Part shown: positions 4,520 through 60,900 of the stretch, piece after piece
Layout of the letters: each line of letters begins with the position of its first letter
Position numbering within the stretch: the stretch's first letter is position 1
DNA from: Octopus vulgaris
Taxonomy: Eukaryota
Length of the DNA: 64,000 nt
Reading direction: 5' to 3'
Assembly: GCA_951406725.2 (NCBI GenBank)
Contig: OX597818.1
Span: forward strand, 49,972,001 to 50,036,000
Position numbers and translations under genes: made by a program
The notes under the pieces: generated by a model
What the model saw: the letters and a program-made list of their open reading frames with translations, nothing else
Database searches by the model: none
What the model was told of the DNA's origin: nothing

Positions 4520-5430
4520 TCCCCCTCTCACAAATGTGTTTCTCCAATTTTGCCATCCTGTTTGTTGGTTACATTGAGGACCAAGCATTCTCCCAATTCT
4601 CCAGGCCGACCCCAGAGCTATACGGTCGCTAAGTAGACGACTGTATAGGTGCCACCGCCCTCTCCCGTGAACAACTCTGCCACTTCATCTCTTTCCTCTC
4701 TAACTTCCACCCTTCTCTCCAATTCACTTCTATCTTTCTTTACTACCCACAAGGGGCTAAACATAGAGGGGACAAACAAGGACGGACAAACGGATTAAGT
4801 CAATTACATCGACCCCAGTGCGTAACTGGTACTTAATTTATCGACCCCGAAAGGATGAAAGGCAACGTCGACCTCGGTGGAATTTGAACTCAGAACGTAA
4901 CGGCAGACGAAATACCTATTTCTTTACTATCCACAAGGGGCTAAACACAGAGAGAACAAACACGGACAGACAAACGGATTAAGTCGATTATATCGACCCC
5001 CAGTGCGTAACTGGTACTTAATTTATCGACCCCGAAAGGATGAAAGGCAAAGTCGACCTCGGCGGAATTTGAACTCAGAACGTAGCGACAGACGAAATAC
5101 TGCTAAGCATTTCGCCCGGCGTGCTAACGTTTCTGCCAGCTCGCCGCCTTATTCACTTCTACTATCTCTAACACCTCGGTTAACTTCCTCGACATCTCTC
5201 TTACCATTGACCACCCTTTCCACTCTCTCACCACCTCTGCTTTCTTCAAACCCACAGATTCCCACCTCTACCTCAACTTCTGCTCCTCCCATCCCTTCCA
5301 CACCAAACGGGACATCCCCTACTCCCAGTTCCTCCGCCCCCGACGCTTGTGCAGCCAGGACCAGGATTTTGAGACCTACTCCCAGTACCTTGCCCGCCTG
5401 TTCATGCATCGAGGATACCCCTTGACCCTT
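4520..5430 (+). mobile_element. Penelope-like (Neptune-type) RT fragment interrupted by two SINEs
   Basis: NFAILFVGYIE, xVDDCIG, FHPSLQFT, VNFLDISL, FKPTDSHLYLNFCSSHP..IPYSQFLR..RLCS..RGYP; ATTCACTTCTA duplicated around the SINE pair 4735-5150. Confidence 0.8.
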
Positions 5431-6384: not shown

Positions 6385-7810
6385 TTATATTTTGTATTTG
6401 CGGCTCCGTTGGTGGTTAATGAGCCCTGCTCTTGACAAGCATACACGACTGCAAACATTGCAAACCAAGCTTTGCCCATTCACTACACAAGCGGTACGCT
6501 TTCGAGCAGCACGCTTAAAGTCTTTATGCAGAATACGTACTCTCGCAAAAGTGTCGACCACCTTTGTAACCTGTTTCCTCCATCTGTGGCGATGACAGGC
6601 ATTGCTCTCCCAGTCCGTCTCCTGCATATCACAGGCCTTTAATGAGGACTTGACACAGCCCTTAAATCGCAGCCTTGGTTTTTGCAGGAGTCTCTTTCCA
6701 CTAACAAGCTCTCTCTATATAGCATCTGTTTAGGGATCCTGCTATCCTTTAATCTAATAAAGTGTCCAGTCAATCGTAACCGGAGCTTGTGCACTATCGC
6801 TGTAATACTCAAGATATCAGCTTTCCTCAGGATCTGTGTGTCTGGTCTTTTTAAGGTTCAGCCAACATTCAAAACGTGTCTCAGACATCACTGATGAAAG
6901 CGTTACATGACAGTTGTAAAAGATCCATGTCTCACATGAGTGACGGAGCGATGTCAGTACACATGCACGGTATATTTTTGTTTGCCTTGTGATGCCATGC
7001 TGGGACCAGACACAAGACTGAAGAGATTGGAAGGAATCAGTTGCTCTCTGCAACCTGAAAGATATTTCATCATCCAGGGAGCAAGAACGGCTGAGTGTGC
7101 TGCCCAAGTAGACAAACTTGTCTACCACTTTTAGTATTGTTCCTTCAGCTGGTTCCACATATGGATATCCTGGTGCAGGCTGGAATATTACGACAGTCTT
7201 GCACAGGTTAATGCTGAGTCCACAAGCTTTGCAAGAAGCAGAAATACGATTTATAAGTAGTTGCGTGTCATCCACTGTATGAGTGACTAAGTCAGTCATC
7301 TGCATAAATGAGGTCGCGAATAAGAGACTGGAAAACTTTTGAATTGGCAGCAAATCAGCGCAAATAAAAGAAGCGGCCAGAAGATCGATACCTGACATAT
7401 ATTCCCAGAGAGCTAACCTTAGCAAAAGCATGAGTAAAAGCAGCAGCAAAGTAAAATGGAAAGAGAGTTGGGGCAAGAATGTCATCCTGCTTGACACTAT
7501 TCTCTATAGGAATGGGTCCCGCCGTGCCACCACCAACATTGACACAAGCCTCCGTCTCATCATGAAATGATTTAGTTATAGATACAAAGTGATCCGGACA
7601 TCCAAGTTTGCCAAGTACTTTCCATAGCAAGGCTCTATTCACAGTATCAAATATGTTGGTTAAATCAATGAATACCTTGGACAAGTTCCATATTCTGTTC
7701 ATAGCACTTCTGTATCTGTCTTGCTGTGAAAATCATATCCATTGTTCCTCTACCAGATTGGAAGCCACATTGAGATTCACATAGGACACCATTTACGAGT
7801 CCCCCATTCA
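6385..7810 (-). mobile_element. RTE/BovB-like LINE ORF fragment (RT to C-terminal Zn finger), degenerate
   Basis: ESQCGFQSGRGTMDMIFTARQ, FIDLT..FDTVNR, VDKFVYLGSTLS, CNVCSRVCLSRAGLINHQRS; frameshifted. Confidence 0.9.
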
Positions 7811-40280: not shown

Positions 40281-40452
40281 ACATTTCTGGGCGTGACTAG
40301 CTACCTCCGGCCAACCCTTTAAGGATAATTTCTGGGCGTGACTAGCTACCTCCGGCCAACCCTTTAAGGATAATTTCTGGGCGTGACTAGCTACCTCCGA
40401 CCAACCCATTAAGGACAATTTCCTCTCAGTCCATTTCTGGGTGAGACTAGCC
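40281..40452. repeat. 46-bp minisatellite, ~3 copies plus a degenerate partial copy
   Basis: ATTTCTGGGCGTGACTAGCTACCTCCGGCCAACCCTTTAAGGATA repeated head-to-tail. Confidence 0.85.
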
Positions 40453-40549: not shown

Positions 40550-43060
40550 CCCTAAGACGCTGTCGGATGGCACGGATCTACCACCCAAGGTACTGAGCGA
40601 TGGACCCTCCAGCATTTCCTGGTTAATTTTCGCTCCTTTCACACTTCGTACATCCTCAGTGAGTAATACTGATCATGTCAATGTGTTTACTGTCTGATAC
40701 TTTTAGATGGTGTCGTCCGCATCCGCTGGCACAGCTCTCCTCACATCCTAGTTCGCACGGGATGCCCTCTCAAAACCTCTAAATTCCGCAGTAGTGGTTG
40801 AGTGCCAGCTCGTACAGATAAGAGTGAAAGGAAGCGGCCTTGCCGAACCAAATGCGTGATACTGAACAGTCTGGATAGACGGCCTTTCGCTCTGCCGATG
40901 TTGCTGTACATTATTGTAATCCAACCTCTGATTGACGGTCAACCCTATCGAAAGCTTTCGTCTGATCTAAATTGATCAGAACCTCATCGATGCCAGGTTC
41001 TTTACCCATCTTTTCTATGACACATCATGTGAGGTGGAGTTTGTCATGGATAAATCTGTTCGGTATGGCGCATGTCTGTGCCTCACTCCTTCAGACAACC
41101 GTCGGTCTCTTCGCTAGCACCTTAGTTAAAATCTTCAATTCTGCATTTAGCAGCTTTACGGGCCTGAAGTTGTCAAAGTTATCCCCCTTGTTCGGGTTCT
41201 TTCTCAGCTGTACCACATCTCATTTCGTAGGACTGGAAGATCTCCCGTTCCATTGTCAGTTGAAGTTGACATCTGCCAAGAAGCTCCCAACAAGTCAGGC
41301 ATATGAAGACAAAGCCCATAAGACAGACCATCCAACACCAGCTAGTCCACCCTCATGCAGTCAGTTATCGTTTCCTGATTTCGTCAACTGTTATCGGACT
41401 ATTGCAGAATTCTGCAACCATAGTCGAGAGCTACGGCTAGCCATCGAGGGAGGCGGTAAAGTCCAACCCTATCTCAGGGCTGCCGTCCGCCTCAAACAGT
41501 TGAGCAAAGTGTCACTGTATTCATATCTTTTTGGAATCGAGTAGTATGCACCCCTCCCGACGCCAGTCAAAGAATACATTGTTATTATGATGCTACGTCG
41601 CACCTCTGTCACCCGAGCCCACAGGACAGCTTTCGTTTTCTTATCTTAGAGCACGTGCCCTATTTCTGACAACGCAGCTTTCATACTTAACGTTGAAGAA
41701 TTAAGGAAGGACCAATCTCAGAACCAGCATGTCAGTCACAATGCCTTTCATAAGTATCTCTTCTAGGTTCCTAGTTAGCTTTCCCGCTACTCCAGAATTC
41801 TCTATCGCTACTTCTTCATAAAACCTTATCGGCTCTAATCTAATAGCCTTTTTCAAGGGCCAACCATCTTCGATTGTTGACAATTTGACTCCATGAATTC
41901 CGACTCAACAAATTCTCTAACTCGATCTCTGTAAACCTGATGCGCCGTGGAAGACACGTTCAATTTCCAGTAATCGGGTTCCTGCCTCTGTAGCCTATCT
42001 AGATCGATCGTACACGTGATCTGATCAATAAGTACAAGGACAATTGCCATAGTAACGAAACGAAGCTAAAGCGCGCAGAGTGAAGCTGTTTGTCACAAAT
42101 TGACCTTGAACTCTGCAGTGCATGCATATTAAATTTTAAAGTTCTAGCTCACTTTCGCTGTTTACACCAGTGCTTGGAAGGAAGGTGTGTAGCGTGTGAT
42201 TGTCGCATTGACCATGACAGAGAAAGTTGAGCAGAGAATCTGCATCAAATTTTGCCAAAAAGCTTGGTGATATCTGCTCAGAGGCCTACACAAAGTTTTC
42301 AAAAAGTTTTCATCGTTCTCGACACAATCAAGGAGATATTGTGCAACTGAAATCCGAGTATCTTTTTGGTCAGCTGAAAGCAGTTTTGGCACAAACTTGG
42401 CAGACATGCATCACATACCCAAATCTTCAGTGATAATGGACTGAACTGAACCATAACTAATCTGAACAACTGATAATTCACGGATGGTGATTCGACGATT
42501 TCCCCTCTAAGCCTGACGCACATCTGCGATGTTTTTCTCAGTTCTGCTGGTTGCGGGTCTCCCAGAATGTTCGTCAATATCGACATTTTTTCGGCCATCT
42601 TGGAAACGTCTAAACCACTCGTACTCTTGTGTGCGGCTCGTACACCCCTCTCCATATACTTTCAGAAAATTTGCGTGAGCAGGTAACGCCATGAGAACTT
42701 TCTCTGTCATGATCAATGAGACGATCACAGCTACACACCTTCCTTCCAAGCACTGTTGTAAACAGCGGAAGTGAGTTTGTGCGCATGCACAACATATTTC
42801 AGGGTCAATCTTTACCTAGCGGTTTTACTCAATTCTTTAGCATCATTATTGACGGATACTTATTGATCAGACCTTATAAGTCCGGATACTTATTGATCAG
42901 ACCTTATAAATGACAAATTTATGGTCTGTGCAGCCGAATAATTTGAATTGTAGATACCCTACGCTATCCGTATCTAAAGAATACTCTGTCTAGATCCAGC
43001 GTCCCCAAAGTCCATCCCCTCGTCCCCGTGGTGGGGACGCTGGCAACGGGTAGTGTCAGA
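40550..43060 (-). mobile_element. Degenerate Tx1/L1-clade LINE ORF2 (end of EN plus RT)
   Basis: LDRVF..TDHKFV, PDYWKLNVS, FRPVKLLNAELKILTKVLA, QTCAIPNR; many frameshifts; split by the mariner. Confidence 0.75.
42013..42908. mobile_element. Rearranged mariner (two 5' halves in inverted orientation, duplicated TIR) nested in a Tx1 LINE
   Basis: Same TIR family as 22397; MTEKV start on both strands; YEWFRRFQDG..SGRP and SAKFVPKLL on the minus strand. Confidence 0.8.
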
Positions 43061-43072
43061 GCTATGCCGTCA

Positions 43073-43610
43073 GGAACTTCGGTTCCTGGTAGGGCCACCC
43101 AAGGCGGATTGGTCTGACACCGAGTGGTATTAGGGCCACAACCCGGCAGACGGGGCTCTGGTGAAAATCCTCAGAGTGCAACCGGCGGCTCTTCAGTCGG
43201 GAACTTCGGTTCCTGGTAGGGCCACCCAAGGTGGATTGGTCTGACACCGAGTGGTATTAGGGCCACAACCCGGCAGACGGGGCTCTGGTGAAAATCCTCA
43301 GAGTGTCTGTTTCGGCAACCGGCGGCTCTTCAGTCGGGAACTTCGGTTCCTGGTAGGGCCACCCAAGGTGGATTGGTCTGACACCGAGTGGTATTAGGGC
43401 CACAACCCGGCAGACGGGGCTCTGGTGAAAATCCTCAGAGTGTCTGTTTCGGCAACCGGCGACTCTTCAGTCGGGAACTTCGGTTCCTGGTAGGGCCACC
43501 CAAGGTGGATTGGTCTGACACCGAGTGGTATTAGGGCTACAACCCGGCAGACGGGGCTCTGGTGAAAATCCTCAGAGTGTCTGTTTCGGCAACCGGCGGC
43601 TCTTCGGTCG
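43073..43610 (+). repeat. GC-rich tandem repeat, 4 units (127+137+137+137 nt), with predicted RNA structure
   Basis: Unit starts at 43073, 43200, 43337, 43474; each has GGAAC-TTCG-GTTCC and further hairpins. Confidence 0.9.
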
Positions 43611-44027: not shown

Positions 44028-47000
44028 CGAGAGGTTACATTTTCCGCTTATGCCGACTCAACCCGCCCAGGGTGAATGTCGTCACAAGTACAAGTAAGTA
44101 CTGTCTAGATGTGATCATGGCCCTGTACTGCTTGCCCACGACCACATTGGCGCATTCATGAAATTCAATTGATATGTATCGTCAAAGGATATCCTGCTAT
44201 ACATGGTGGAGAACTCCTTTTACTTCTGCGTTCGTGGGTGTCTTCGGGTGACCAGTTGTTAAACCCACGCAGTCTTTTTAGAGTTGCAGCTAAATTTTCA
44301 GGAGCAACAATTAGTTTTAAACATAACTAACCTTACCGGTATTAATAACCCTCTAATCTCCAACTACGTGGAGGCACATGGCCTAGTGGTTAGAGCAGCG
44401 GACTCGCGGGTTCGAATCTCAGACCGGGCGATGTGCGTGTTTATGAGCGAAACACCTAAGCTCCACGCGGCTCCGGCAGAAGGTAATGGCGAACTTCTGC
44501 TGACTCTTTCGCCACAACTTTCTCTCACTCCAATCTCCTACTACGTAGAGGCACATGGCCTAGTGGTTAGAGCAGCGGACTCGCGGTCGAGGGGTGGCGG
44601 ATTCGAATCTCAGACCGGGCGATGTGTGTGTTTATGAGCGAAACATCTAAGCTCCACGCGGCTCCGGCAGAAGGTAATGGCGAAACTTCTGCTGACTCTT
44701 TTGCCACAACTTTCTCTCACTCTTTCCTTCTGCATCTTGCAGCTCGCCTGCGACGGACTGGCATCCTGTCCAGGTGGGGAGCCTATACGCCAAGGAAACC
44801 GGGAAACTGGCCCTTATGAGCCAGGCATGGCTTGAGAAGGAACAAACAACAATCTCCTACTACACTTCGCTGCTAATTCATCACGCAACTACACACTAAC
44901 TTCCCTTCATTTCATTAAGTGCTCCCTACACTCTTATTTCAAAACCACCTCCTTTACTCCACTGGTTCGTGTTCTATTTTGATGTAACGTCGTATTTCCC
45001 CCATATTTTTCTTCCCCTTCTCCTTTCTTTCTTTCTGATACATCAATTTATTTCCCCTTTTATTTCCATACAGCGCAATTACATTGACTTAGTATTCCTG
45101 TTCGTTGATTTTGTGTCTTTTTGTTCCCCACTGACTTTTTTTTTCTATTTGTGTCTTACATGGATATGGATATTAATTACTGCATTGATACTGACTTAAC
45201 TCGGATTACTTTGGAATTATCATTCTTTTGTAAAGGAATCGATTCCATGAACTAATCTTCCAGATACTTATTCAAGATACAATACCATCCTTTGGTGTTG
45301 TTTAATTTCAAATCAGTCCTGATCAAAGATGTTGTCGGTGCCCCTGCTGTTGCTGTTGCTGTTGAGCGAAGCGGTCTTCGTCCCAGAGCTCGCAAGATCG
45401 CGCCTCTGTAGTGGGAGAAGTCCGAAACGTGGTCCTTTGCTATTCGTAAGACCCGCAGAAGAGAAAGCAGGTCAACCCCCGACACCGAGAACATCGACGG
45501 ATGGATGAATGCGCATCCAGGCTCAGCGGTTGCGTAGGAAGTCGGGGGACAAGAAACAGGAAGAAAGAGTGAGAGAAAGTTGGAGCGAAAGAGTATAAGA
45601 GGGGTCGCCACTACCCCCTGCCGGAGTCTCGTGGAGCTTTAGGTGTTTTTCGCTCAATAAACATACACAACGCCCGGTCTGGGAATCGAAACCGCGATCC
45701 TCCGACCGCGAGTCCGCTGCTCTACCCACTGGGCCATTGCGCCTCCACTGCTGTTGCTGTTTCAACAGTCTCTGCTGCGGTTTATGGTGTTGCTGTCGCT
45801 ATTGTTGATGCTGGCGAAGGCGGCGAGCTGGCAGAATCGTTAGCGCGCCGGGCGAAATGCGTAGACGTATTTCGGTCTGTCGTTACGTTCCGAGTTCAAA
45901 TTCCGCCGAGGTCGATTTTGCCTTTCATCCTTTCGAGGTCGATTTTGCCTTTCATCCTTTCGAGGTCGATTTTGCCTTTCATCCTTTCGAGGTCGATTTT
46001 GCCTTTCATCCTTTCGAGGTCGATAAATTAAATACCAGTTACGCACTGGGGTCGATGTAATCGACTTGATCCCTTCGTCTGTCCTTGTTTGTCCCCTCTG
46101 TGTTTAGCCCCTCGTGGGGTAGTAAAGAAATATATAGTTGATGTTGTTGATGTTGGCACTAATGCTGTTGCTTCTCCTTCTTTTCCTTGCCGCTACTGTT
46201 GCTTGTGCTTCTGTTGTTGCGCATCAGATCTGTGATCAAAAGTATTCCAGCGGAGACCAACCCATCATCTTAGGTTCACATAATCTACACCACTTTTTCT
46301 CAACTATTTTTTTTTCCTATGGAGCCCTTTGATTTCTATTTTACTTAAGACTTTCATAACCATTCGATGTTTAAAAATTATTATATTTTTATAATTAAAT
46401 ATCATTAGAAATTGTATAAAAAAATGTTTAAGTATTTTGTGTGTTGCAGAAGTGTAATCAATTTTAACAACAAATTCTTATGTGGACCCCCAGGAGTCAG
46501 ATGGACCGGGGTTGAGAACAACTGGTCCACACTATCGGAGGTATTCTTCCTTAAAGGTTTGATTTGAGGGATTTTGACTACCTTTTCTTATTTCTTTACT
46601 ACTCACAAGGGGCTGAACATAGAGTGGACAAGCAAGGACAGACAAACGGATTAAGTCGATTAGATCGACCCCAGTGCGTAACTGGTACTTATTTAATCGA
46701 TCCCGAAAGGATGAAAGGCAAAGTCGACCTTGGCAGAATTTGAACTCAGAGTGGCAGACGAAATACGGCTGCGCATTTCGCCTGGCGTGTTATCGTTTCT
46801 GCCAGCTCGCCGCCTTTTGACTAGCATTTCTAGCAGATCGAACGACCGGATAGAAATTTTCCCTCGTTACTCATAGAGTGGCAAGTTGCAAGAATAGGCA
46901 AAACTTAGGATTAGGTTCACTACTGCACCATGTCTTGTCTTCCTATCAGACCAAATCCAGTGTCCCTTTGTGAGAATTGGGCCTGTGAATAATTGATATA

Positions 47001-48365: not shown

Positions 48366-48433
<68 letters not shown>

Positions 48434-48623
48434 GAGAATGGAGAAACATACTTAAATCAGTAAAACATCAACTATCCGATGATACTCAATCCATACTTTA
48501 ATACACCATTACATATGAGTAAAGGCAATATATAAAATGAAATGAGATATACAGTAATAGTAAAAGTAAAAGGATAAAGAGATATAAGTAAAATTTCAAA
48601 TATAATATGCAAATAAATCAAAA

Positions 48624-48731
48624 CTGACAGCTGTTTCGGCAGTGAGGACAGTCATACCTCATTTAACCTATAAGCCATAAAGGCAGGTATAAATGAGGCA
48701 TTAACAAGGATGCCCCACGGCCTCTTCAGAG
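48624..48731 (-). ncRNA. Mirror hammerhead ribozyme motif in the left PLE arm
   Basis: Reverse complement of 56380-56487. Confidence 0.75.
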
Positions 48732-49069
48732 AATTAAATTAAATTTGTTATAATAGTGAAAAATATTATATAATCATATACATATAAATATAAAAATATA
48801 AAAATGTAAAATATAAAAACTTATACATCATAATGCTACACTTATATAATATAATACACATTTGTACAAAAAGGAAGGTAAACAGAACAATATAAAACAA
48901 AATATATAACAGTGTATATATTAATATTAATAAGTACCGATATTATACATATTTGGCTAATAGTTTTTTTTATAAAAAAAGGGCTAACACATATGGAGAT
49001 GAAAAATAATAATTAAATCCGTGGTACAGTTCATAAAATTCTAAAGCTATAAAAGTTAATAAAAATTAC

Positions 49070-49128
<59 letters not shown>

Positions 49129-50868
49129 TAATAATAATAAAAAATACTAAAAATAGATACAGTTAAGTTAGCACCAAGTCCATCCTTTCAAGATCGAAAT
49201 AACTATGAGTTAAGAAATGCTGACCACTAGGTAAAGAAAATTTAGATTAATTCGATTGGCTATTGGTTTGAAATTTAAATCACAAAAGAAAATTATACGG
49301 TTGGTTAGTCAAGGAACGCCAATATTCACACACGCATCTACAGATCAATCGCACATACACACATAGTTATATGTATATACATACACTTATACACATACAA
49401 AATTACAAGCAACAACTAGCACTTAGATAAACAAAAAAGGGAAGCAACTATGCTAACATTTAGTCCTTCAAAATTATAACTGAGCCTTAATAACAAAAAA
49501 AGAACCATCCATGCATTCTATAAAATATTTAATTTAGATATAAATATATTTTTAAATATCAGTATGTTACTAATTCAGATAATTATTTCATGGGTAACTT
49601 AAAATTTATAACACCGGTTTGTTACAGAGTAAACATACGGTTGTTAGGTTTATCGTAAGTTTGTTATGATTTTAAGTACGCTAAATTATAAAATATAAAA
49701 TATAAAATATATATTAATTTAGATATTATAAATAAGTCACTTATTAACTTAATAAATATAGTGCCATAATATACCAGTTTAGGCATTAAAGAATAGAAGG
49801 GGAAGTATTAATGTAAACGCTTATGAGAACATCACAGAAATTTTAAATAAATTTTATATTATAAAGACTTAAGATGAAAAGAGATAAAATAAATAAAAAG
49901 GAATACATACGAAGGAATAAATACGGTTATACACATAATTATAAGTACAAACTAGTATATATGTATTCATATATTATTAAAATTAAATACAAATAAATGA
50001 TAGATATGTATGTATAAAACTACACCAGTATAAGTAAATAAGTAAAAAATAAATAGGTAACAAATTAGATGACTTGATATGTATGTAAACATCTACACTT
50101 AAATAGGCAAATAAATAAATGAATAGAAGACTAGATGCAAAGATTGATAATATTACAATAAAATGGGAAATAAACAAAAATAAATAAAGTGAATATATAT
50201 TTTATATATATTTTATATTGTTGAAAGTAAATATGTATGGAAGGATAGTTTAAAGTACAGATCCAGAGGACTATAGATATAAACTAAATATATGAGGCTG
50301 GTAAAATTATAAAGCAAAATGCATGTAAATGAGAAAATGAAAAAAAAAAATGAAAAAGGTTTATCAGTGAATAGCATAAGATACAAATTAAGGTGAGTAC
50401 AAAAAGACCAAATATATAATAAAAACCTTCCAAATAAACACATACAAAAAAGCTATAATCTCAACCTAAACCCACCAAACTCACAAAAGGCTCTCATATA
50501 TTACATATTATACAATATCATTACATTATCTAGAGCTAGGTATCTAACCAAGATATACATATATACTATGCAATATACTATGCAATATTGGAAAACTTCA
50601 AAAATCACACATTACAAGGCAAATACCAAAATGAATATGCTATTTTATGTCATATTGCATTTCTCTTAAAAAACAAACAAAAACCCACATACAAAAATCA
50701 AGAAACCAATAATACTAGACACATCCATTAATTATTATACAAATGTAGCTATAAAAATTATAAAATTATGAAATTTATAAATTGTATACTTTAGAATTAT
50801 AGAGGACCACAGGTATATTTAGTTAAAGAAGGGAATTAAAAAATTAATAATAGTGGAAGTGCTAAGTT

Positions 50869-52982
50869 CTATTTGAATCTAGAAAAGGTGAACGGTAGCC
50901 TATGAATACAAAAGAAGTTTTTCTCATTAATGTTGTTAATAATTTGCCGACCCGCTTTAATAATGAAGAAAATTTCATTAATACATAGAGAGCATTTTTT
51001 ATTTTTTCCATTATACACAGGTGCTGAAGTTAGTATTTTCCAGTTTAATCTAAAATCTAAGTTCTTACTTTTAAGTTCCCAAATGTATGCACTTAGCCCT
51101 GTAGAGTACATTCTATTTTTATTCCTAAAAGTATATCTGTGATAATTCCATCTTTGTTTTATGCTATTCATAGTTGCACCGATATACACCCTACTACTCA
51201 ATTGTGTATCTACAGTGCATTGGTAAACTACCTCCTTCCTGAGGCATTGATTACCAAATACACATTTATTTTTATTTCTGCAATTACAAAGATTAACAGA
51301 ATGAGGAAATCTAAGATTGGACACCACCCCTATACTACTATTCACATTATAAGTGTTACAATTGTTATCATCATCCAAACCCAAAATCAACGAATGAGTT
51401 AATTTCACATTATCGGCTATATTTCTATCACTAGTACTAGTATTGGTAGTAGTAGTATGATCTATTACATTTATATTATCTCTGACAGGTATAGTGCACT
51501 CATTATTAGTAAGGAGGTTGTTCCCATTTGTTCCAAGAAAATTTATATTCGTATTATTAATGAAGAGGGGCAAGTTATCCTGGTCTAAATTCAATTTTCT
51601 ATCCTTATAGAAGTGATCCAGTTTCTTGTTATTAAAAGAGGAGATAATGGTGGCTAGATTATGAGTAATGCTATATCCCACTCTAACAGTACCGTTGTTA
51701 ATTAAAGGACTAAATTTATTCCTATCCTTACCAAAATGCCTAAAAATAACATTATGCAAAGCTCTCACTATGTTTGTTTTAATCTGCATTGCATACGGGA
51801 TAATCAACCAAAGAGTATCCTTATCAGAATTAGGATTGCCTATAGAATTAATGTTATTTGTAAAAATCCTATTCGTAGACCAACTCATAGGATTGCTATT
51901 CTTACCACTGTTATTATTATATCTATCTATATCAATATTACCATGGTTATTGCGCAAGTAAACTTTACCATTATCATGTCTACCATAAGTTTTAATTCGT
52001 ATATTATTATTAATATTACTACTATTACCCGTATGTTTAGATCTATTTGAGCTACCGTTCACCTTTCCAAGGTTAACGTCACTTCTACATTTATTATAGG
52101 TGTTATCATATATTCTATTTTTACTATTCTTATGTATATTGTTGATTATCCTAAATCTATTTGTGTTGTTCCTGATAGTTCTACCTCCATTAGGGGGTTC
52201 CCCTTAGGTATAAACCAAATCTTACTTTTATATCCTGCCTTAAGTAATGCTGCATTGTATCTATCACAGTGTTTGTTAAAAATTTCCTCGTTTGAGGATA
52301 AACTAGAAATTCTCTGACTAATGCTACGCACTAGTGCATTTTTAATTTGGGGGGGTGATTACTAGAACGGTTAATGTATATTAGGTTAGAATTAGGTTTA
52401 ATATAGGGTTCATGTAAACCATTAGTAATGTTACAATTAACATCTAAATAATTAGCAGAATAATTTTCACTTTCAATGATAATGGATAGGCCGAAGCTTT
52501 TAAAAAATTTATTTATTCTTTTTTTCAGAAGATCTAATCTCCTATTTGATGTATTCCTAACACAAAATAAGGCGTCATCCCTGTATAATCCACCTTTTAA
52601 TTCAGGGAATTCCCTACTAAAGTTATCTAATAGATACATCCCAACTAGATCAGTCACCTCCGCTGAGTCCGGCGATCCCATTGTGATATCGAACAAGTTG
52701 GGTGTGTCCTTTCTAGCCCAAAGTTTATTATCAAACTCTATTAAAGTTTTCCTGGCTGTTAGTATAACCTTAATCTCCCCCATACTTAATTTAGTGTGTT
52801 TTCTAGCAAAAATTAAGGACTTATTTAATATAATAGGGTTAATTGAAGTGTAATAATTCTGTATATCGAATTGTATAAATTTATTTCTATTATAGCTAAA
52901 GTTGTTACTGTCACAGACCTTAATGGTAGAAAAACCAATCCAAAGCACCCTGAGTATTCTTCCAAAGGTTTAGTTTGATTTT
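50869..52982 (-). pseudogene. PLE RT + linker + GIY-YIG endonuclease ORF, 5'-truncated, with three single-base homopolymer frameshifts (~52932, ~52350, ~52200)
   Basis: Motifs NLWKNT..DWF, FIQFDIQNYYTSI, FDITMGSPDSAEVTDLVG, GLYRDD, NYLDV, YINRSSNHPP, SSNEEIFN, CNCRNKNKC..C, VVYQC..VYIGAT..KQRWNYH, KCSLCINE, CIH. Confidence 0.9.
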
Positions 52983-54259
52983 ATATACATAAGAATAGTA
53001 AAAATAGAATATATGATAACACCTATAATAAATGTAGAAGTGACGTTAACCTTGGAAAGGTGAACGGTAGCTCAAATAGATCTAAGCATACGGGTAATAG
53101 TAGTAATATTAATAATAATATACGAATTAAAACTTATGGTAGACATGATAATGGTAAAGTTTACTTGCGCAATAACCATGGTAATATTGATATAGATAGA
53201 TATAATAATAACAGTGGTAAGAATAGCAATCCTATGAGTTGGTCTACGAATAGGATTTTTACAAATAACATTAATTCTATAGGCAATCCTAATTCTGATA
53301 AGGATACTCTTTGGTTGATTATCCCGTATGCAATGCAGATTAAAACAAACATAGTGAGAGCTTTGCATAATGTTATTTTTAGGCATTTTGGTAAGGATAG
53401 GAATAAATTTAGTCCTTTAATTAACAACGGTACTGTTAGAGTGGGATATAGCATTACTCATAATCTAGCCACCATTATCTCCTCTTTTAATAACAAGAAA
53501 CTGGATCACTTCTATAAGGATAGAAAATTGAATTTAGACCAGGATAACTTGCCCCTCTTCATTAATAATACGAATATAAATTTTCTTGGAACAAATGGGA
53601 ACAACCTCCTTACTAATAATGAGTGCACTATACCTGTCAGAGATAATATAAATGTAATAGATCATACTACTACTACCAATACTAGTACTAGTGATAGAAA
53701 TATAGCCGATAATGTGAAATTAACTCATTCGTTGATTTTGGGTTTGGATGATGATAACAATTGTAACACTTATAATGTGAATAGTAGTATAGGGGTGGTG
53801 TCCAATCTTAGATTTCCTCATTCTGTTAATCTTTGTAATTGCAGAAATAAAAATAAATGTGTATTTGGTAATCAATGCCTCAGGAAGGAGGTAGTTTACC
53901 AATGCACTGTAGATACACAATTGAGTAGTAGGGTGTATATCGGTGCAACTATGAATAGCATAAAACAAAGATGGAATTATCACAGATATACTTTTAGGAA
54001 TAAAAATAGAATGTACTCTACAGGGCTAAGTGCATACATTTGGGAACTTAAAAGTAAGAACTTAGATTTTAGATTAAACTGGAAAATACTAACTTCAGCA
54101 CCTGTGTATAATGGAAAAAATAAAAATGCTCTCTATGTATTAATGAAATTTTCTTCATTATTAAAGCGGGTCGGCAAATTATTAACAACATTAATGAGAA
54201 AAACTTCTTTTGTATTCATAGGCTACCGTTCACCTTTTCTAGATTCAAATAGAACTTAG
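52983..54259 (+). pseudogene. Inverted second copy of the PLE linker/GIY-YIG coding region
   Basis: Same translation as the minus-strand copy until an A5 vs A6 run at ~54122 shifts the C-terminus out of frame. Confidence 0.9.
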
Positions 54260-55980
54260 CACTTCCACTATTATTAATTTTTTAATTCCCTTCTTTAACT
54301 AAATATACCTGTGGTCCTCTATAATTCTAAAGTATACAATTTATAAATTTCATAATTTTATAATTTTTATAGCTACATTTGTATAATAATTAATGGATGT
54401 GTCTAGTATTATTGGTTTCTTGATTTTTGTATGTGGGTTTTTGTTTGTTTTTTAAGAGAAATGCAATATGACATAAAATAGCATATTCATTTTGGTATTT
54501 GCCTTGTAATGTGTGATTTTTGAAGTTTTCCAATATTGCATAGTATATTGCATAGTATATATGTATTTCTTGGTTAGATACCTAGCTCTAGATAATGTAA
54601 TGATATTGTATAATATGTAATATATGAGAGCCTTTTGTGAGTTTGGTGGGTTTAGGTTGAGATTATAGCTTTTTTGTATGTGTTTATTTGGAAGGTTTTT
54701 ATTATATATTTGGTCTTTTTGTACTCACCTTAATTTGTATCTTATGCTATTCACTGATAAACCTTTTTCATTTTCTCATTTACATGCATTTTGCTTTATA
54801 TTTTTTACCAGCCTCATATATTTAGTTTATATCTATAGTCCTCTGGATCTGTACTTTAAACTATCCTTCCATACATATTTACTTTCAACAATATAAAATA
54901 TATATAAAATATATATATTCACTTTATTTATTTTTGTTTATTTCCCATTTTATTGTAATATTATCAATCTTTGCATCTAGTCTTCTATTCATTTATTTAT
55001 TTGCCTATTTAAGTGTAGATGTTTACATACATATCAAGTCATCTAATTTGTTACCTATTTATTTTTTACTTATTTACTTATACTGGTGTAGTTTTATACA
55101 TACATATCTATCATTTATTTGTATTTAATCTTAATAATATATGAATACATATATACTAGTTTGTACTTATAATTATGTGTATAACCGTATTTATTCCTTC
55201 GTATGTATTCCTTTTATTTATTTTATCTCTTTTCATCTTAAGTCTTTATAATATAAAATTTATTTAAAATTTCTGTGATGTTCTCATAAGCGTTTACATT
55301 AATACTTCCCCTTCTATTCTTTAATGCCTAAACTGGTATATTATGGCACTATATTTATTAAGTTAATAAGTGACTTATTTATAATATCTAAATTAATATA
55401 TATTTTATATTTTATATTTTATAATTTAGCGTACTTAAAATCATAACAAACTTACGATAAACCTAACAACCGTATGTTTACTCTGTAACAAACCGGTGTT
55501 ATAAATTTTAAGTTACCCATGAAATAATTATCTGAATTAGTAACATACTGATATTTAAAAATATATTTATATCTAAATTAAATATTTTATAGAATGCATG
55601 GATGGTTCTTTTTTTGTTATTAAGGCTCAGTTATAATTTTGAAGGACTAAATGTTAGCATAGTTGCTTCCCTTTTTTGTTTATCTAAGTGCTAGTTGTTG
55701 CTTGTAATTTTGTATGTGTATAAGTGTATGTATATACATATAACTATGTGTGTATGTGCGATTGATCTGTAGATGCGTGTGTGAATATTGGCGTTCCTTG
55801 ACTAACCAACCGTATAATTTTCTTTTGTGATTTAAATTTCAAACCAATAGCCAATCGAATTAATCTAAATTTTCTTTACCTAGTGGTCAGCATTTCTTAA
55901 CTCATAGTTATTTCGATCTTGAAAGGATGGACTTGGTGCTAACTTAACTGTATCTATTTTTAGTATTTTTATTATTATTA

Positions 55981-56039
<59 letters not shown>

Positions 56040-56379
56040 AGTAATTTTTATTAACTTTTATAGCTTTAGAATTTTATGAACTGTACCACGGATTTAATTA
56101 TTATTTTTCATCTCCATATGTGTTAGCCCTTTTTTTTATAAAAAAAACTATTAGCCAAATATGTATAATATCGGTACTTATTAATATTAATATATACACT
56201 GTTATATATTTTGTTTTATATTGTTCTGTTTACCTTCCTTTTTGTACAAATGTGTATTATATTATATAAGTGTAGCATTATGATGTATAAGTTTTTATAT
56301 TTTACATTTTTATATTTTTATATTTATATGTATATGATTATATAATATTTTTCACTATTATAACAAATTTAATTTAATT

Positions 56380-56487
56380 CTCTGAAGAGGCCGTGGGGCA
56401 TCCTTGTTAATGCCTCATTTATACCTGCCTTTATGGCTTATAGGTTAAATGAGGTATGACTGTCCTCACTGCCGAAACAGCTGTCAG
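56380..56487 (+). ncRNA. Type I hammerhead ribozyme motif in the PLE 3' region (extended stem II, palindromic stem III)
   Basis: CTGAAGA(56382)-GGC...GCC-GAAAC(56474)-AGCT-GTC(56485); stem II extended by TGCCTCATTT/AAATGAGGTA; stem I weak. Confidence 0.75.
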
Positions 56488-56863
56488 TTTTGATTTATTT
56501 GCATATTATATTTGAAATTTTACTTATATCTCTTTATCCTTTTACTTTTACTATTACTGTATATCTCATTTCATTTTATATATTGCCTTTACTCATATGT
56601 AATGGTGTATTAAAGTATGGATTGAGTATCATCGGATAGTTGATGTTTTACTGATTTAAGTATGTTTCTCCATTCTCTAATTTTGTAGTATTAATTTACG
56701 GTAATATTATTACCTTTACCCATTTAATACAATAGATGAACTGATTGCTTGACAATTTTTAACATCTATGTATTATTTTTGTTGGGTACCTATCTAGCAG
56801 TATATTGGATATATATTATCCCATGGTGGGTTGAATTTTCAACCCCTATCTCATTTTATAACC

Positions 56864-56897
<34 letters not shown>

Positions 56898-56898
56898 C

Positions 56899-57753
<855 letters not shown>

Positions 57754-59799: not shown

Positions 59800-60900
59800 A
59801 AACCGTCCAATGAACATTGTAGACAATATAACCTACCCACGAATTCCGAAGTTGCTGCGTTGGTTCCTGGTGATATTAAAGATCCTTTGGATGTCATCCT
59901 CCACTGTCAGAATACACCGTACAAATGTATTAACTCACTTCATCGGTCTTATGATCCGCTACAGTATGTCCTGTTGTTTCCAGAAGGAACTGGTGGCTGG
60001 CAGCTGAATTTGAAGAAAATCAAATGGACAGACATTGACAGCAATAGATTTCTATGCTTATCAGCTTCAAGTGAGAATAAATTCGGATAACCATATGATG
60101 CAATGCAGAAGGTTCTTGCAGCAATATGCAGTAGATCAATGGGCGAAAGTTGAACGAAGCAGGCTTCAGTGGGTTGAACGAAATCAAACTACGATAAAAG
60201 CAGAAGAGTATTCAGGATTGCTTGATGACATACATCAAAATGATTCAGTGACACCTGGGAGAAGAATCATTCTCCCACCGACCATCAAAGGGAGTCCAAG
60301 ATTTTACAATGAAGCCTTTCAAAGTGCCATGGGAAAGCCCAACTACTTTATTGCTTTCACGACAAATCCAAAGTGGCCAGAGATTCAGAGTACGTTATTT
60401 CCTGAGGACCGTTCCGACATTTTAGCTAGAGTGTTTAAAATGAAGCTCGATGCCCTTCTTGACGATCTTCTGAAAAAACATGTATTGGGGAAAGTTATCA
60501 CCCACACACCCACCACTGAATGGCAGAAACGTGGACTAACACATGCGCATATACTGCTTATAATGGCTCCTCAATACAAGCCTGCCGTGCCAGAAGTCAT
60601 CGACAAAGTAGTCAGTGCAGAAATTCCTGATAAAAATAAGAGTCCACAGTTATTCAAGGCCGTAATGGCGCACAATATACACGGTCCCTGTGGTTCTACT
60701 AACAAATCAAGTCCCTGTGTGTGGAAGTTGGTAAGGATGGAGCACATTGTACAAAGGATTTCTCGAAGCCGTTCCAGCATTCAGCCATCATCCCGAAAGA
60801 CAGCTACCCCACGTATCTAAGAAGAAGTCCATCAGACGGCGGGCTGACACATCAGAAGCTGCTCACACGTCAGGGTGAACAGATAGATTTTGTGGTGTAC
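59800..60900 (+). mobile_element. Helitron Rep/helicase fragment (HUH Rep domain), frameshifted and truncated by a SINE
   Basis: SYDPLQYVLLFPEG..GW, LQQYAVD, GRRIILP, FTTNPKWPEI, EWQKRGLTHAHILL, SAEIPD, HGPCG, YPTYLRR. Confidence 0.92.

Follow-up and report, generated by a model that had tools for sequence, protein, structure and literature searches.

An approximately 8.4-kb palindrome in a 64,000-nucleotide (nt) stretch of Octopus vulgaris DNA (contig OX597818.1, positions 49,972,001 to 50,036,000; hereafter, the window) consists of two 5'-truncated copies of a young Hydra-type Penelope-like element (PLE) lying head to head in a (TA)n microsatellite. With a probability that we place at roughly 0.7, the palindrome arose by one insertion in which a single RNA was copied from primers supplied by both nicked strands of the target, starting at two fixed sites that lie 179 nt apart, and the resulting cDNAs were joined end to end. 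This interpretation draws on the architecture of the insertion, on two fixed end sites, on the strict pairing of site-1 ends with site-2 ends, on rare alleles shared by sister arms, and on sequence unique to each arm.

Aligned as reverse complements, the arms (48427-52139 and 52983-56684) show 3,698 matches, 5 mismatches, and 9 gaps, confirming the near-perfect inverted arms, 843-nt spacer, right-only tail of ~180 nt, and (TA)n at both ends that an earlier note had described from the sequence. One mismatch and one gap fall at the outer arm edge, the remaining gaps lie in homopolymers or short repeats, and three internal substitutions are outside repeats. The two flanks differ, and the left flank beyond its (TA)n tract has a single 100% match in the 2.8-Gb genome. 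Motifs at the locus include YRDD, TMGS, CNCRNKNKC, and RVYIG. The proposal that the spacer encodes the reverse transcriptase (RT) holds for a palm-thumb part with YRDD and TMGS, but this RT is partial, starting near residue 245 of the ~947-amino-acid (aa) natural protein with the first ~245 residues missing, and RT/endonuclease (EN) frame breaks occur near 52930, 52348, and 52192. Because the spacer lacks the N-terminal part of the RT, the locus copy cannot encode a whole RT; it is dead. Similarly, a GIY-YIG endonuclease had been proposed for both arms; the left one stays in frame through its KCxLC..E..N..CxH end, but the right one shifts frame near 54125. The position of the RT in the loop is an accident of where the copies were truncated, as the site-1 cDNA simply ran 843 nt further. 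We rejected a designed layout of this kind, since 37 junctions were scattered over many positions. The suggestion that the architecture captures something special was not borne out either, as a head-to-head copy with a one-sided tail is a published and common outcome. The locus is ordinary for its class, with no host effect shown.

Copies of the family end at site 1 (the equivalent of window position 56684) or site 2 (56863), within a few bases, and then run into (TA)n. The repeat adjoins nearly all listed ends, and exact matches to an end plus TA numbered 384 for site 1 and 312 for site 2. Among 37 loci selected by their RT, 19 were two-ended, 1 was three-ended, 14 were one-ended, and 3 had no end. 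All 19 two-ended loci combined one site-1 end with one site-2 end, and the three-ended locus is a young copy beside an older one. We also selected pairs by end pattern from the first 100 of the 384 site-1 and 312 site-2 ends (100 plus 72 ends in the shared range) and obtained 24 pairs within 20 kb, with 0.8 expected by chance. All of these pairs faced outward and 23 were mixed (P about 1e-6); the sole site-1/site-1 pair has kilobases of non-element DNA between its ends and looks like two insertions. In a second family, whose 899-aa frame shares about 50% identity across the N-terminal 248 aa and whose tail measures about 155 nt, 28 of 34 site-1 ends in part of one contig (C1) had an outward site-2 partner, and no same-type outward pairs were found there. 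Altogether, 70 of the 71 two-ended insertions in the two families pair an untailed end with a tailed end. One-armed copies are real. A hidden mini-arm was clear at only 1 of 14 junctions of apparently one-armed copies (L088, 29 nt), and because most such copies abut (TA)n directly, double priming is not obligatory.

The sequences of 17 of the 23 mixed pairs were extracted, and one of these pairs, L074, has non-element DNA between its arms. Across 17 inverted pairs (38,188 sites), substitutions amounted to 1.9/kb between sister arms and 12/kb between insertions, and rare alleles were held in common at 0.71/kb by sister arms versus 0.01/kb between insertions. Parts present as direct tandems were as alike as inverted arms. 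In 8 of 19 insertions of one set and 3 of 14 of the other, the window locus among them, it was the untailed arm that extended further toward the 5' end. At this locus and 10 others, each arm therefore holds sequence that the other lacks, indicating that neither arm was copied from the other. Furthermore, among 14 short insertions, 7 had arms that stopped no more than 25 nt apart (mean under permutation, 1.8; P, 4e-5), and such matched 5' stops are expected from one RNA with one 5' end. Thirty of the 37 junctions examined had clean anchors, and 3 of these 30 contained inserted bases; microhomology of at least 2 nt was present at 13 of the 27 junctions without inserted bases, compared with 21% by chance.

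Some features of individual insertions are recorded here as separate observations. A 5'-truncation hotspot at window 55900-55925 (unit positions 4800-4830), just 5' of a (TAT)n tract, takes 9 of 28 pattern-selected arm ends in 30 nt, two of which are exact hairpin junctions; it may mark where transcripts start, where they are processed, or where the RT stops. At L074:1431-2330, ~0.9 kb of non-element, microsatellite-rich DNA separates a site-1 arm from a site-2 arm, representing either captured DNA or two insertions. At L039:7986-9009, a young copy sits directly against the tailed end of a two-armed copy that is older and 90% identical.

We propose that the GIY-YIG endonuclease of the element would nick both strands of the self-complementary (TA)n target and that the template would be a read-through (tandem) RNA. 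Its leader would carry, in order, the hammerhead, stem P1, site 1, a hairpin, site 2, a second hairpin, and the AUG, an arrangement that would place one RT at each site. The two target strands would prime on the same folded RNA, each at a different one of the two sites, with the RT starting at site 2 following or displacing the cDNA begun at site 1. Each cDNA would stop independently or at the RNA 5' end, the cDNAs would be joined through 0 to 6 nt of microhomology, and priming by a single strand would leave a one-armed copy. The one-tail rule would follow, since each leader of such an RNA contains a single site 1 and a single site 2. Of the two-round, opposite-strand insertion suggested earlier, the priming of both target strands is retained, and one concerted event on one template fits the data better than sequential rounds.

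Predicted RNA structure around the start sites offers a possible basis for their fixed positions. The 451-nt leader, from the end of the pseudo-long terminal repeat (pseudo-LTR) to the start codon, folds at z = -8, and 18 of 111 predicted pairs were changed on both sides across six copies including older subfamilies, a level that 0 of 500 shuffles reached; slid controls were near zero. Site 1 and site 2 both lie in predicted unpaired linkers, with site 1 about 8-15 nt 3' of the P1 5' strand. In the predicted fold, a stem joins the AUG to a CCAU that lies immediately 5' of site 1, and the same fold was obtained for sister families in this genome. As a clade-wide feature the AUG-pairing stem was unsupported in metagenome relatives, and we retain it for the families of this genome.

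We collected 77 metagenome relatives, which are distant Hydra-like elements; 29 of them have 150 nt upstream of the ATG. In these 29, GAGCAC-type words occurred before the ATG twice in 21, once in 4, and not at all in 4, and their frequency inside open reading frames (ORFs) was 0.03 per 150 nt. A GCUC or UCUC was located 5-36 nt upstream of such words in 48 of 52 cases in leaders versus 7 of 43 inside ORFs. The twin GCUC...GAGCAC hairpins are spaced 37-82 nt apart, usually 54-82 nt. Of the 14 ends that could be mapped, 12 belong to loci carrying the strict word, and 11 of the 12 fell 8-26 nt before a GAGCAC-type word, at the foot of the first or second hairpin. The remaining strict-word end lay inside the ribozyme, and the two other loci show, by eye, a variant hairpin in the same place. 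The twin hairpin of these relatives is a candidate RNA signal for the position of each start site. More tentatively, and at somewhat under even odds, the Penelope tail may represent the distance between two RT landing pads, formed by a duplicated hairpin (GCUC...YGAGCACU) between ribozyme and start codon, each pad loading one protomer primed by a different (TA)n strand; in the window family, the pads would since have diverged, giving a larger fold and the tail of 179 nt. If this is correct, a two-armed insertion must carry exactly one tail. As the window family lacks the exact motif, the hairpin is linked to the locus by analogy.

Several observations weigh against our interpretation. The family itself is known from sequence. 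The leader covariation comes from six related sequences, and the structure was derived from the same alignment. In metagenome loci, the AUG was fully paired in 7 of 26 and the AUG stem beat controls, at the 5% level, in 2 of 26; in a second comparison, 2 of 15 loci beat controls. The exact twin hairpin is absent from the window family, in which a relaxed descriptor found one analogue in the tail, within background. For PAc, the Poseidon element of a lizard (green anole), the start sites reported for top and bottom strands did not differ, and no coupling was seen in vitro (PMC11167929). The junction at 52982/52983 rests on the assembly, because no listed contig of four public runs bridges it. 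Finally, the arms of 4 of 17 insertions differ at 3-10 family-segregating sites; arm differences at such sites total 32, with 26 in four of the 17 loci. These differences switch back and forth between the arms, and the nearest subfamily is the same for both. Such interleaving looks like assembly polishing toward the majority, and two RNAs or gene conversion would also be compatible with it.

Segregating differences between sister arms would be accommodated if two RNAs from the same source copy formed an asymmetric dimer, for example, through the palindromic stem III of the hammerhead, and each was copied from one strand. Stem III is an 8-nt palindrome in every family of this genome examined and changes in a paired way, and dimerization has been predicted for the lizard protein (PMC11167929), both of which are consistent with a dimer. 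We nonetheless consider this explanation unlikely, as it needs an extra rule to forbid site-1/site-1 and site-2/site-2 insertions (1 of 71 seen, which looks like two insertions), a single RNA more simply explains why the 5' stops match in 7 of 14 short insertions, and both arms always share their nearest subfamily. Self-priming or fold-back, in which the cDNA (or an antisense template) folds back and is extended along its own length, the tail arising when one end is trimmed during endonuclease resolution (PMC3846280 and PMC8557442), would explain near-identical arms as well as the nearly symmetric junctions of 7 of 14 short insertions, including two exact hairpins, and it may account for some symmetric insertions. 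As the general mechanism it is quite improbable, since it cannot make the window locus or the 10 others in which some 5' sequence is confined to the untailed arm and the tail to the tailed arm.

An assembly or read-chimera artifact derived from a high-copy repeat would fit the listed contigs of four runs, which continue into the normal upstream ORF instead of crossing the junction, and the differences in homopolymer length between assembly and short-read contigs within the family. However, joints present at a single locus are lost from the contigs of a high-copy family, the left flank is unique and unlike the right one, and the two arms end differently, enclose an 843-nt spacer, and carry three internal substitutions that lie outside repeats. 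With the same end rule also recurring at dozens of loci with different junctions, we regard an artifact as very improbable. That two independent insertions entered the same (TA)n at different times and were homogenized by gene conversion is hardly credible. The family does insert beside older copies, as at L039, but no (TA)n is left at the junction, orientation is always outward, end types are always mixed, and direct tandem parts are as alike as inverted arms.

Priming of both strands on one RNA, the reading that we prefer, has a parallel in LINE-1 twin priming, in which both target strands prime on one RNA and the inverted junction shows microhomology. In LINE-1, the second primer starts from internal sites that vary, and the two cDNAs are not known to overlap, whereas here the start sites are fixed near the 3' end and the copies overlap by kilobases.

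The architecture of these insertions is known, and the element found here is a large variant of its kind. For PLEs, an inverted 5'-truncated copy, a partial tandem, and a 30-40-bp tail 'often' or 'optionally' at one end have been described, and the same paper names the origin of the inverted arms and of the one-sided tail as an open question (PMC8557442). Our family has the same layout as this canonical unit, with the tail at one end only; its tail is 179 nt rather than the published 30-40 nt (about 120-155 nt in sister families), and the 'often' or 'optionally' of the published description is here a counted rule (70 of 71). A tail on one inverted pseudo-LTR, Asn-rich inserts such as those of our family (in rotifer Penelope), and a self-priming model have been reported (PMC3846280). 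The PAc protein cuts and extends both strands in vitro, starting at two internal sites bounding the tail on an AT-rich target (PMC11167929). Our family likewise has two start sites bounding the tail and an AT-rich target, with use of both strands inferred here. The sites of PAc lie inside the ORF in an AC-rich stem-loop, whereas ours are upstream of the ORF, each with its own hairpin in relatives. Among the papers listed by our literature searches, none gave a count for the one-tail rule or described the twin hairpin, although older Penelope papers may hold qualitative statements; the word 'tail' does not occur in the accessible part of one preprint (bioRxiv 10.64898/2026.07.22.740005). The genome thus provides counted rules, namely, one tail per two-armed insertion, one template lineage, and arms that are not fold-back copies, and the relatives provide a short candidate RNA signal at each start site, making an open mechanistic question testable. 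If true, the use of structure-marked internal sites on both strands by a telomerase-related RT would bear on RT evolution and gene-writing tools.

Searching the genome with the spacer gave 566 candidate matches, the best 40 of which were scored and were 99-100% identical; the family has hundreds of copies. Mapping of 10-kb stretches around spacer matches indicated a unit of ~5,574 nt (~5.6 kb), present as partial tandems and head-to-head pairs. RT and EN were in one frame in 1 of 43 assembled thumb-region copies (L065). A search with the protein recovered two more, the natural copies L120 and L088, with a whole, uninterrupted RT-EN frame including the cysteine-histidine end. Frame breaks in other copies lie mostly in two C-runs of copy-variable length, and short-read contigs differ from the window in the length of the first C-run in 4 of 4 sequencing runs and clearly in that of the second in 3 of 4, suggesting that many breaks are likely assembly undercalls. 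An intron was considered and is not needed, as the breaks fall in these length-variable runs. The sequences agree with the earlier description of a young, probably active family, one likely active now or recently.

On motifs, fold match, and by-eye comparison with the published Hydra set, the element is a Hydra-type EN+ PLE, as had been suspected. This clade comprises PLEs with a C-terminal EN, including Hydra-2_Amil, the 2,507-bp cephalopod family Hydra-1_Obim, and Penelope-13_HM, which is listed with an inverted 5'-truncated copy (PMC8557442). The family protein has RWR at residue 38 (RW(K/R) in 100 of 106 aligned proteins), DKT at residue 139, where DKG is changed to DKT as in the Hydra clade, and a CxCX5C linker, CNCRNKNKC, at residue 810. 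Its endonuclease is without CCHH, has CxxC and CxH flanking a conserved E and N (left arm and L120), and matches the published Hydra alignment by eye. In the single RT-EN frame of L120 and L088, VY..YIG..R..H..E..N aligns with homologues (E 9e-28 to protein P0009); P0009 is 37% identical to the family RT part and, by eye, nearly the same as Hydra-2_Amil. The Pfam GIY-YIG model did not match the family protein (one homologue matched, below the cut-off), nor did Pfam and PDB sequence searches return any match for it. An AlphaFold model of the L120 protein (pLDDT 79.7) had telomerase RTs as its seven best PDB fold matches, with low confidence in two Asn-rich inserts. The RT core shows no long insertion relative to the homologues with which it was aligned. 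The 573 protein relatives found are, among the 120 listed, mostly unnamed, about 700 aa long, and 32-43% identical. A pseudo-LTR from a partial tandem, an inverted 5'-truncated copy, and a one-sided tail are all present in the family.

The family thus resembles the Hydra clade in RW(K/R), DKT, CxCX5C, the lack of CCHH, CxxC/CxH around E and N, a hammerhead, and (TA)n. It differs in its unit of ~5.6 kb (published units are 'generally' under 3 kb), its 2.4-kb 3' region, its 85-nt hammerhead stem II, and its protein of ~947 aa compared with a homologue median of 712, the extra length coming from the two Asn-rich, low-confidence inserts. Relative to Hydra-1_Obim, hammerhead and length both differ.

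Descriptor and folding analyses identified in the pseudo-LTR a putative type I hammerhead ribozyme composed of CUGAAGA, an 85-nt stem II, GAAA, a palindromic stem III ACAGCUGU, and C, with a short stem I. As reported in the earlier note, such a motif is present in each arm, along with the (TA)n target. Its core is the same in 77 of 85 young copies, and core, stem II, and palindromic stem III are conserved in sister families. An Rfam scan did not detect the hammerhead and returned only microsatellite-driven miRNA noise. Hammerheads with a palindromic stem III have been described as likely dimeric and weak in vitro (PMC4209133). Further hammerhead-type motifs outside mapped elements, in L128, L130, and L136 (element-sense about 7464, 6969, and 7046, respectively), probably belong to other PLE families. 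At least three more Hydra-like families (L120-L139) have open frames of 899, ~980, and ~1,090 aa. Many of their copies are uninterrupted, their hammerheads have a long stem II, and their tails, where mapped, measure about 120-155 nt.

Table 1. Features of the palindromic insertion, in window coordinates
Feature	Position	Strand	Basis
Left (TA)n target tract, preceded by short (CT)n	48370..48427	no strand	sequence
Copy 1: left arm plus spacer; 5'-truncated element with untailed 3' end at site 1	48427..52982	-	alignment/mapping
~2.4-kb AT-rich 3' region with (TAA)n tract	48427..50868	-	sequence
Stem P1, 5' strand; predicted pairing with start-codon region in tandem transcript	48435..48446	-	folding
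Putative type I hammerhead motif, left copy	48626..48729	-	descriptor
444-aa frame: Asn-rich inserts, CxCX5C linker, GIY-YIG-type endonuclease, in-frame CxxC..E..N..CxH end	50869..52203	-	ORF/alignment
843-nt spacer: RT palm and thumb fragment (FDIQNYY, TMGS, YRDD, HPP)	52140..52982	-	motifs/alignment
Head-to-head junction, 2-nt microhomology (AT)	52982..52983	no strand	assembly
Copy 2: right arm with its tail; 5' truncation in linker, 3' end at site 2	52983..56863	+	alignment/mapping
Putative type I hammerhead motif, right copy	56382..56485	+	descriptor + folding
179-nt right-arm-only tail, spanning the interval from site 1 to site 2; hairpins predicted, with compensatory changes in older subfamilies	56685..56863	+	folding
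Right compound (TA)n/(TCTA)n/(TC)n tract	56864..57077	no strand	sequence

Because the arms read outward from the center, the double-stranded RNA that had been suggested for the locus, as a substrate for ADAR or small-RNA pathways, would need a host or antisense read-through transcript. Among the sequencing runs listed, none was labelled as RNA. In run X1, which we could only guess to be RNA, A>G and T>C changes were not above those in DNA runs; neither result is evidence either way.

Elsewhere in the window, decayed pieces of the 3' end and tail of the same family lie at 977-1160 in an AT tract flanked by a local duplication. A Helitron helicase-like N-terminal fragment is present at 60014-60820 on the plus strand (Pfam PF14214, E 4e-43). 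A 228-aa frame at 6817-7503 on the minus strand, with no Pfam match, is what we take from its motifs to be a C-terminal fragment of a LINE RT. Tandem arrays are found at 4735-5100 (185 nt), at 40283-40422 (45 nt), at 43051-43610 (137 nt, inside a kilobase of 56% GC), and at 45907-46024 (27 nt, inside a dispersed repeat).

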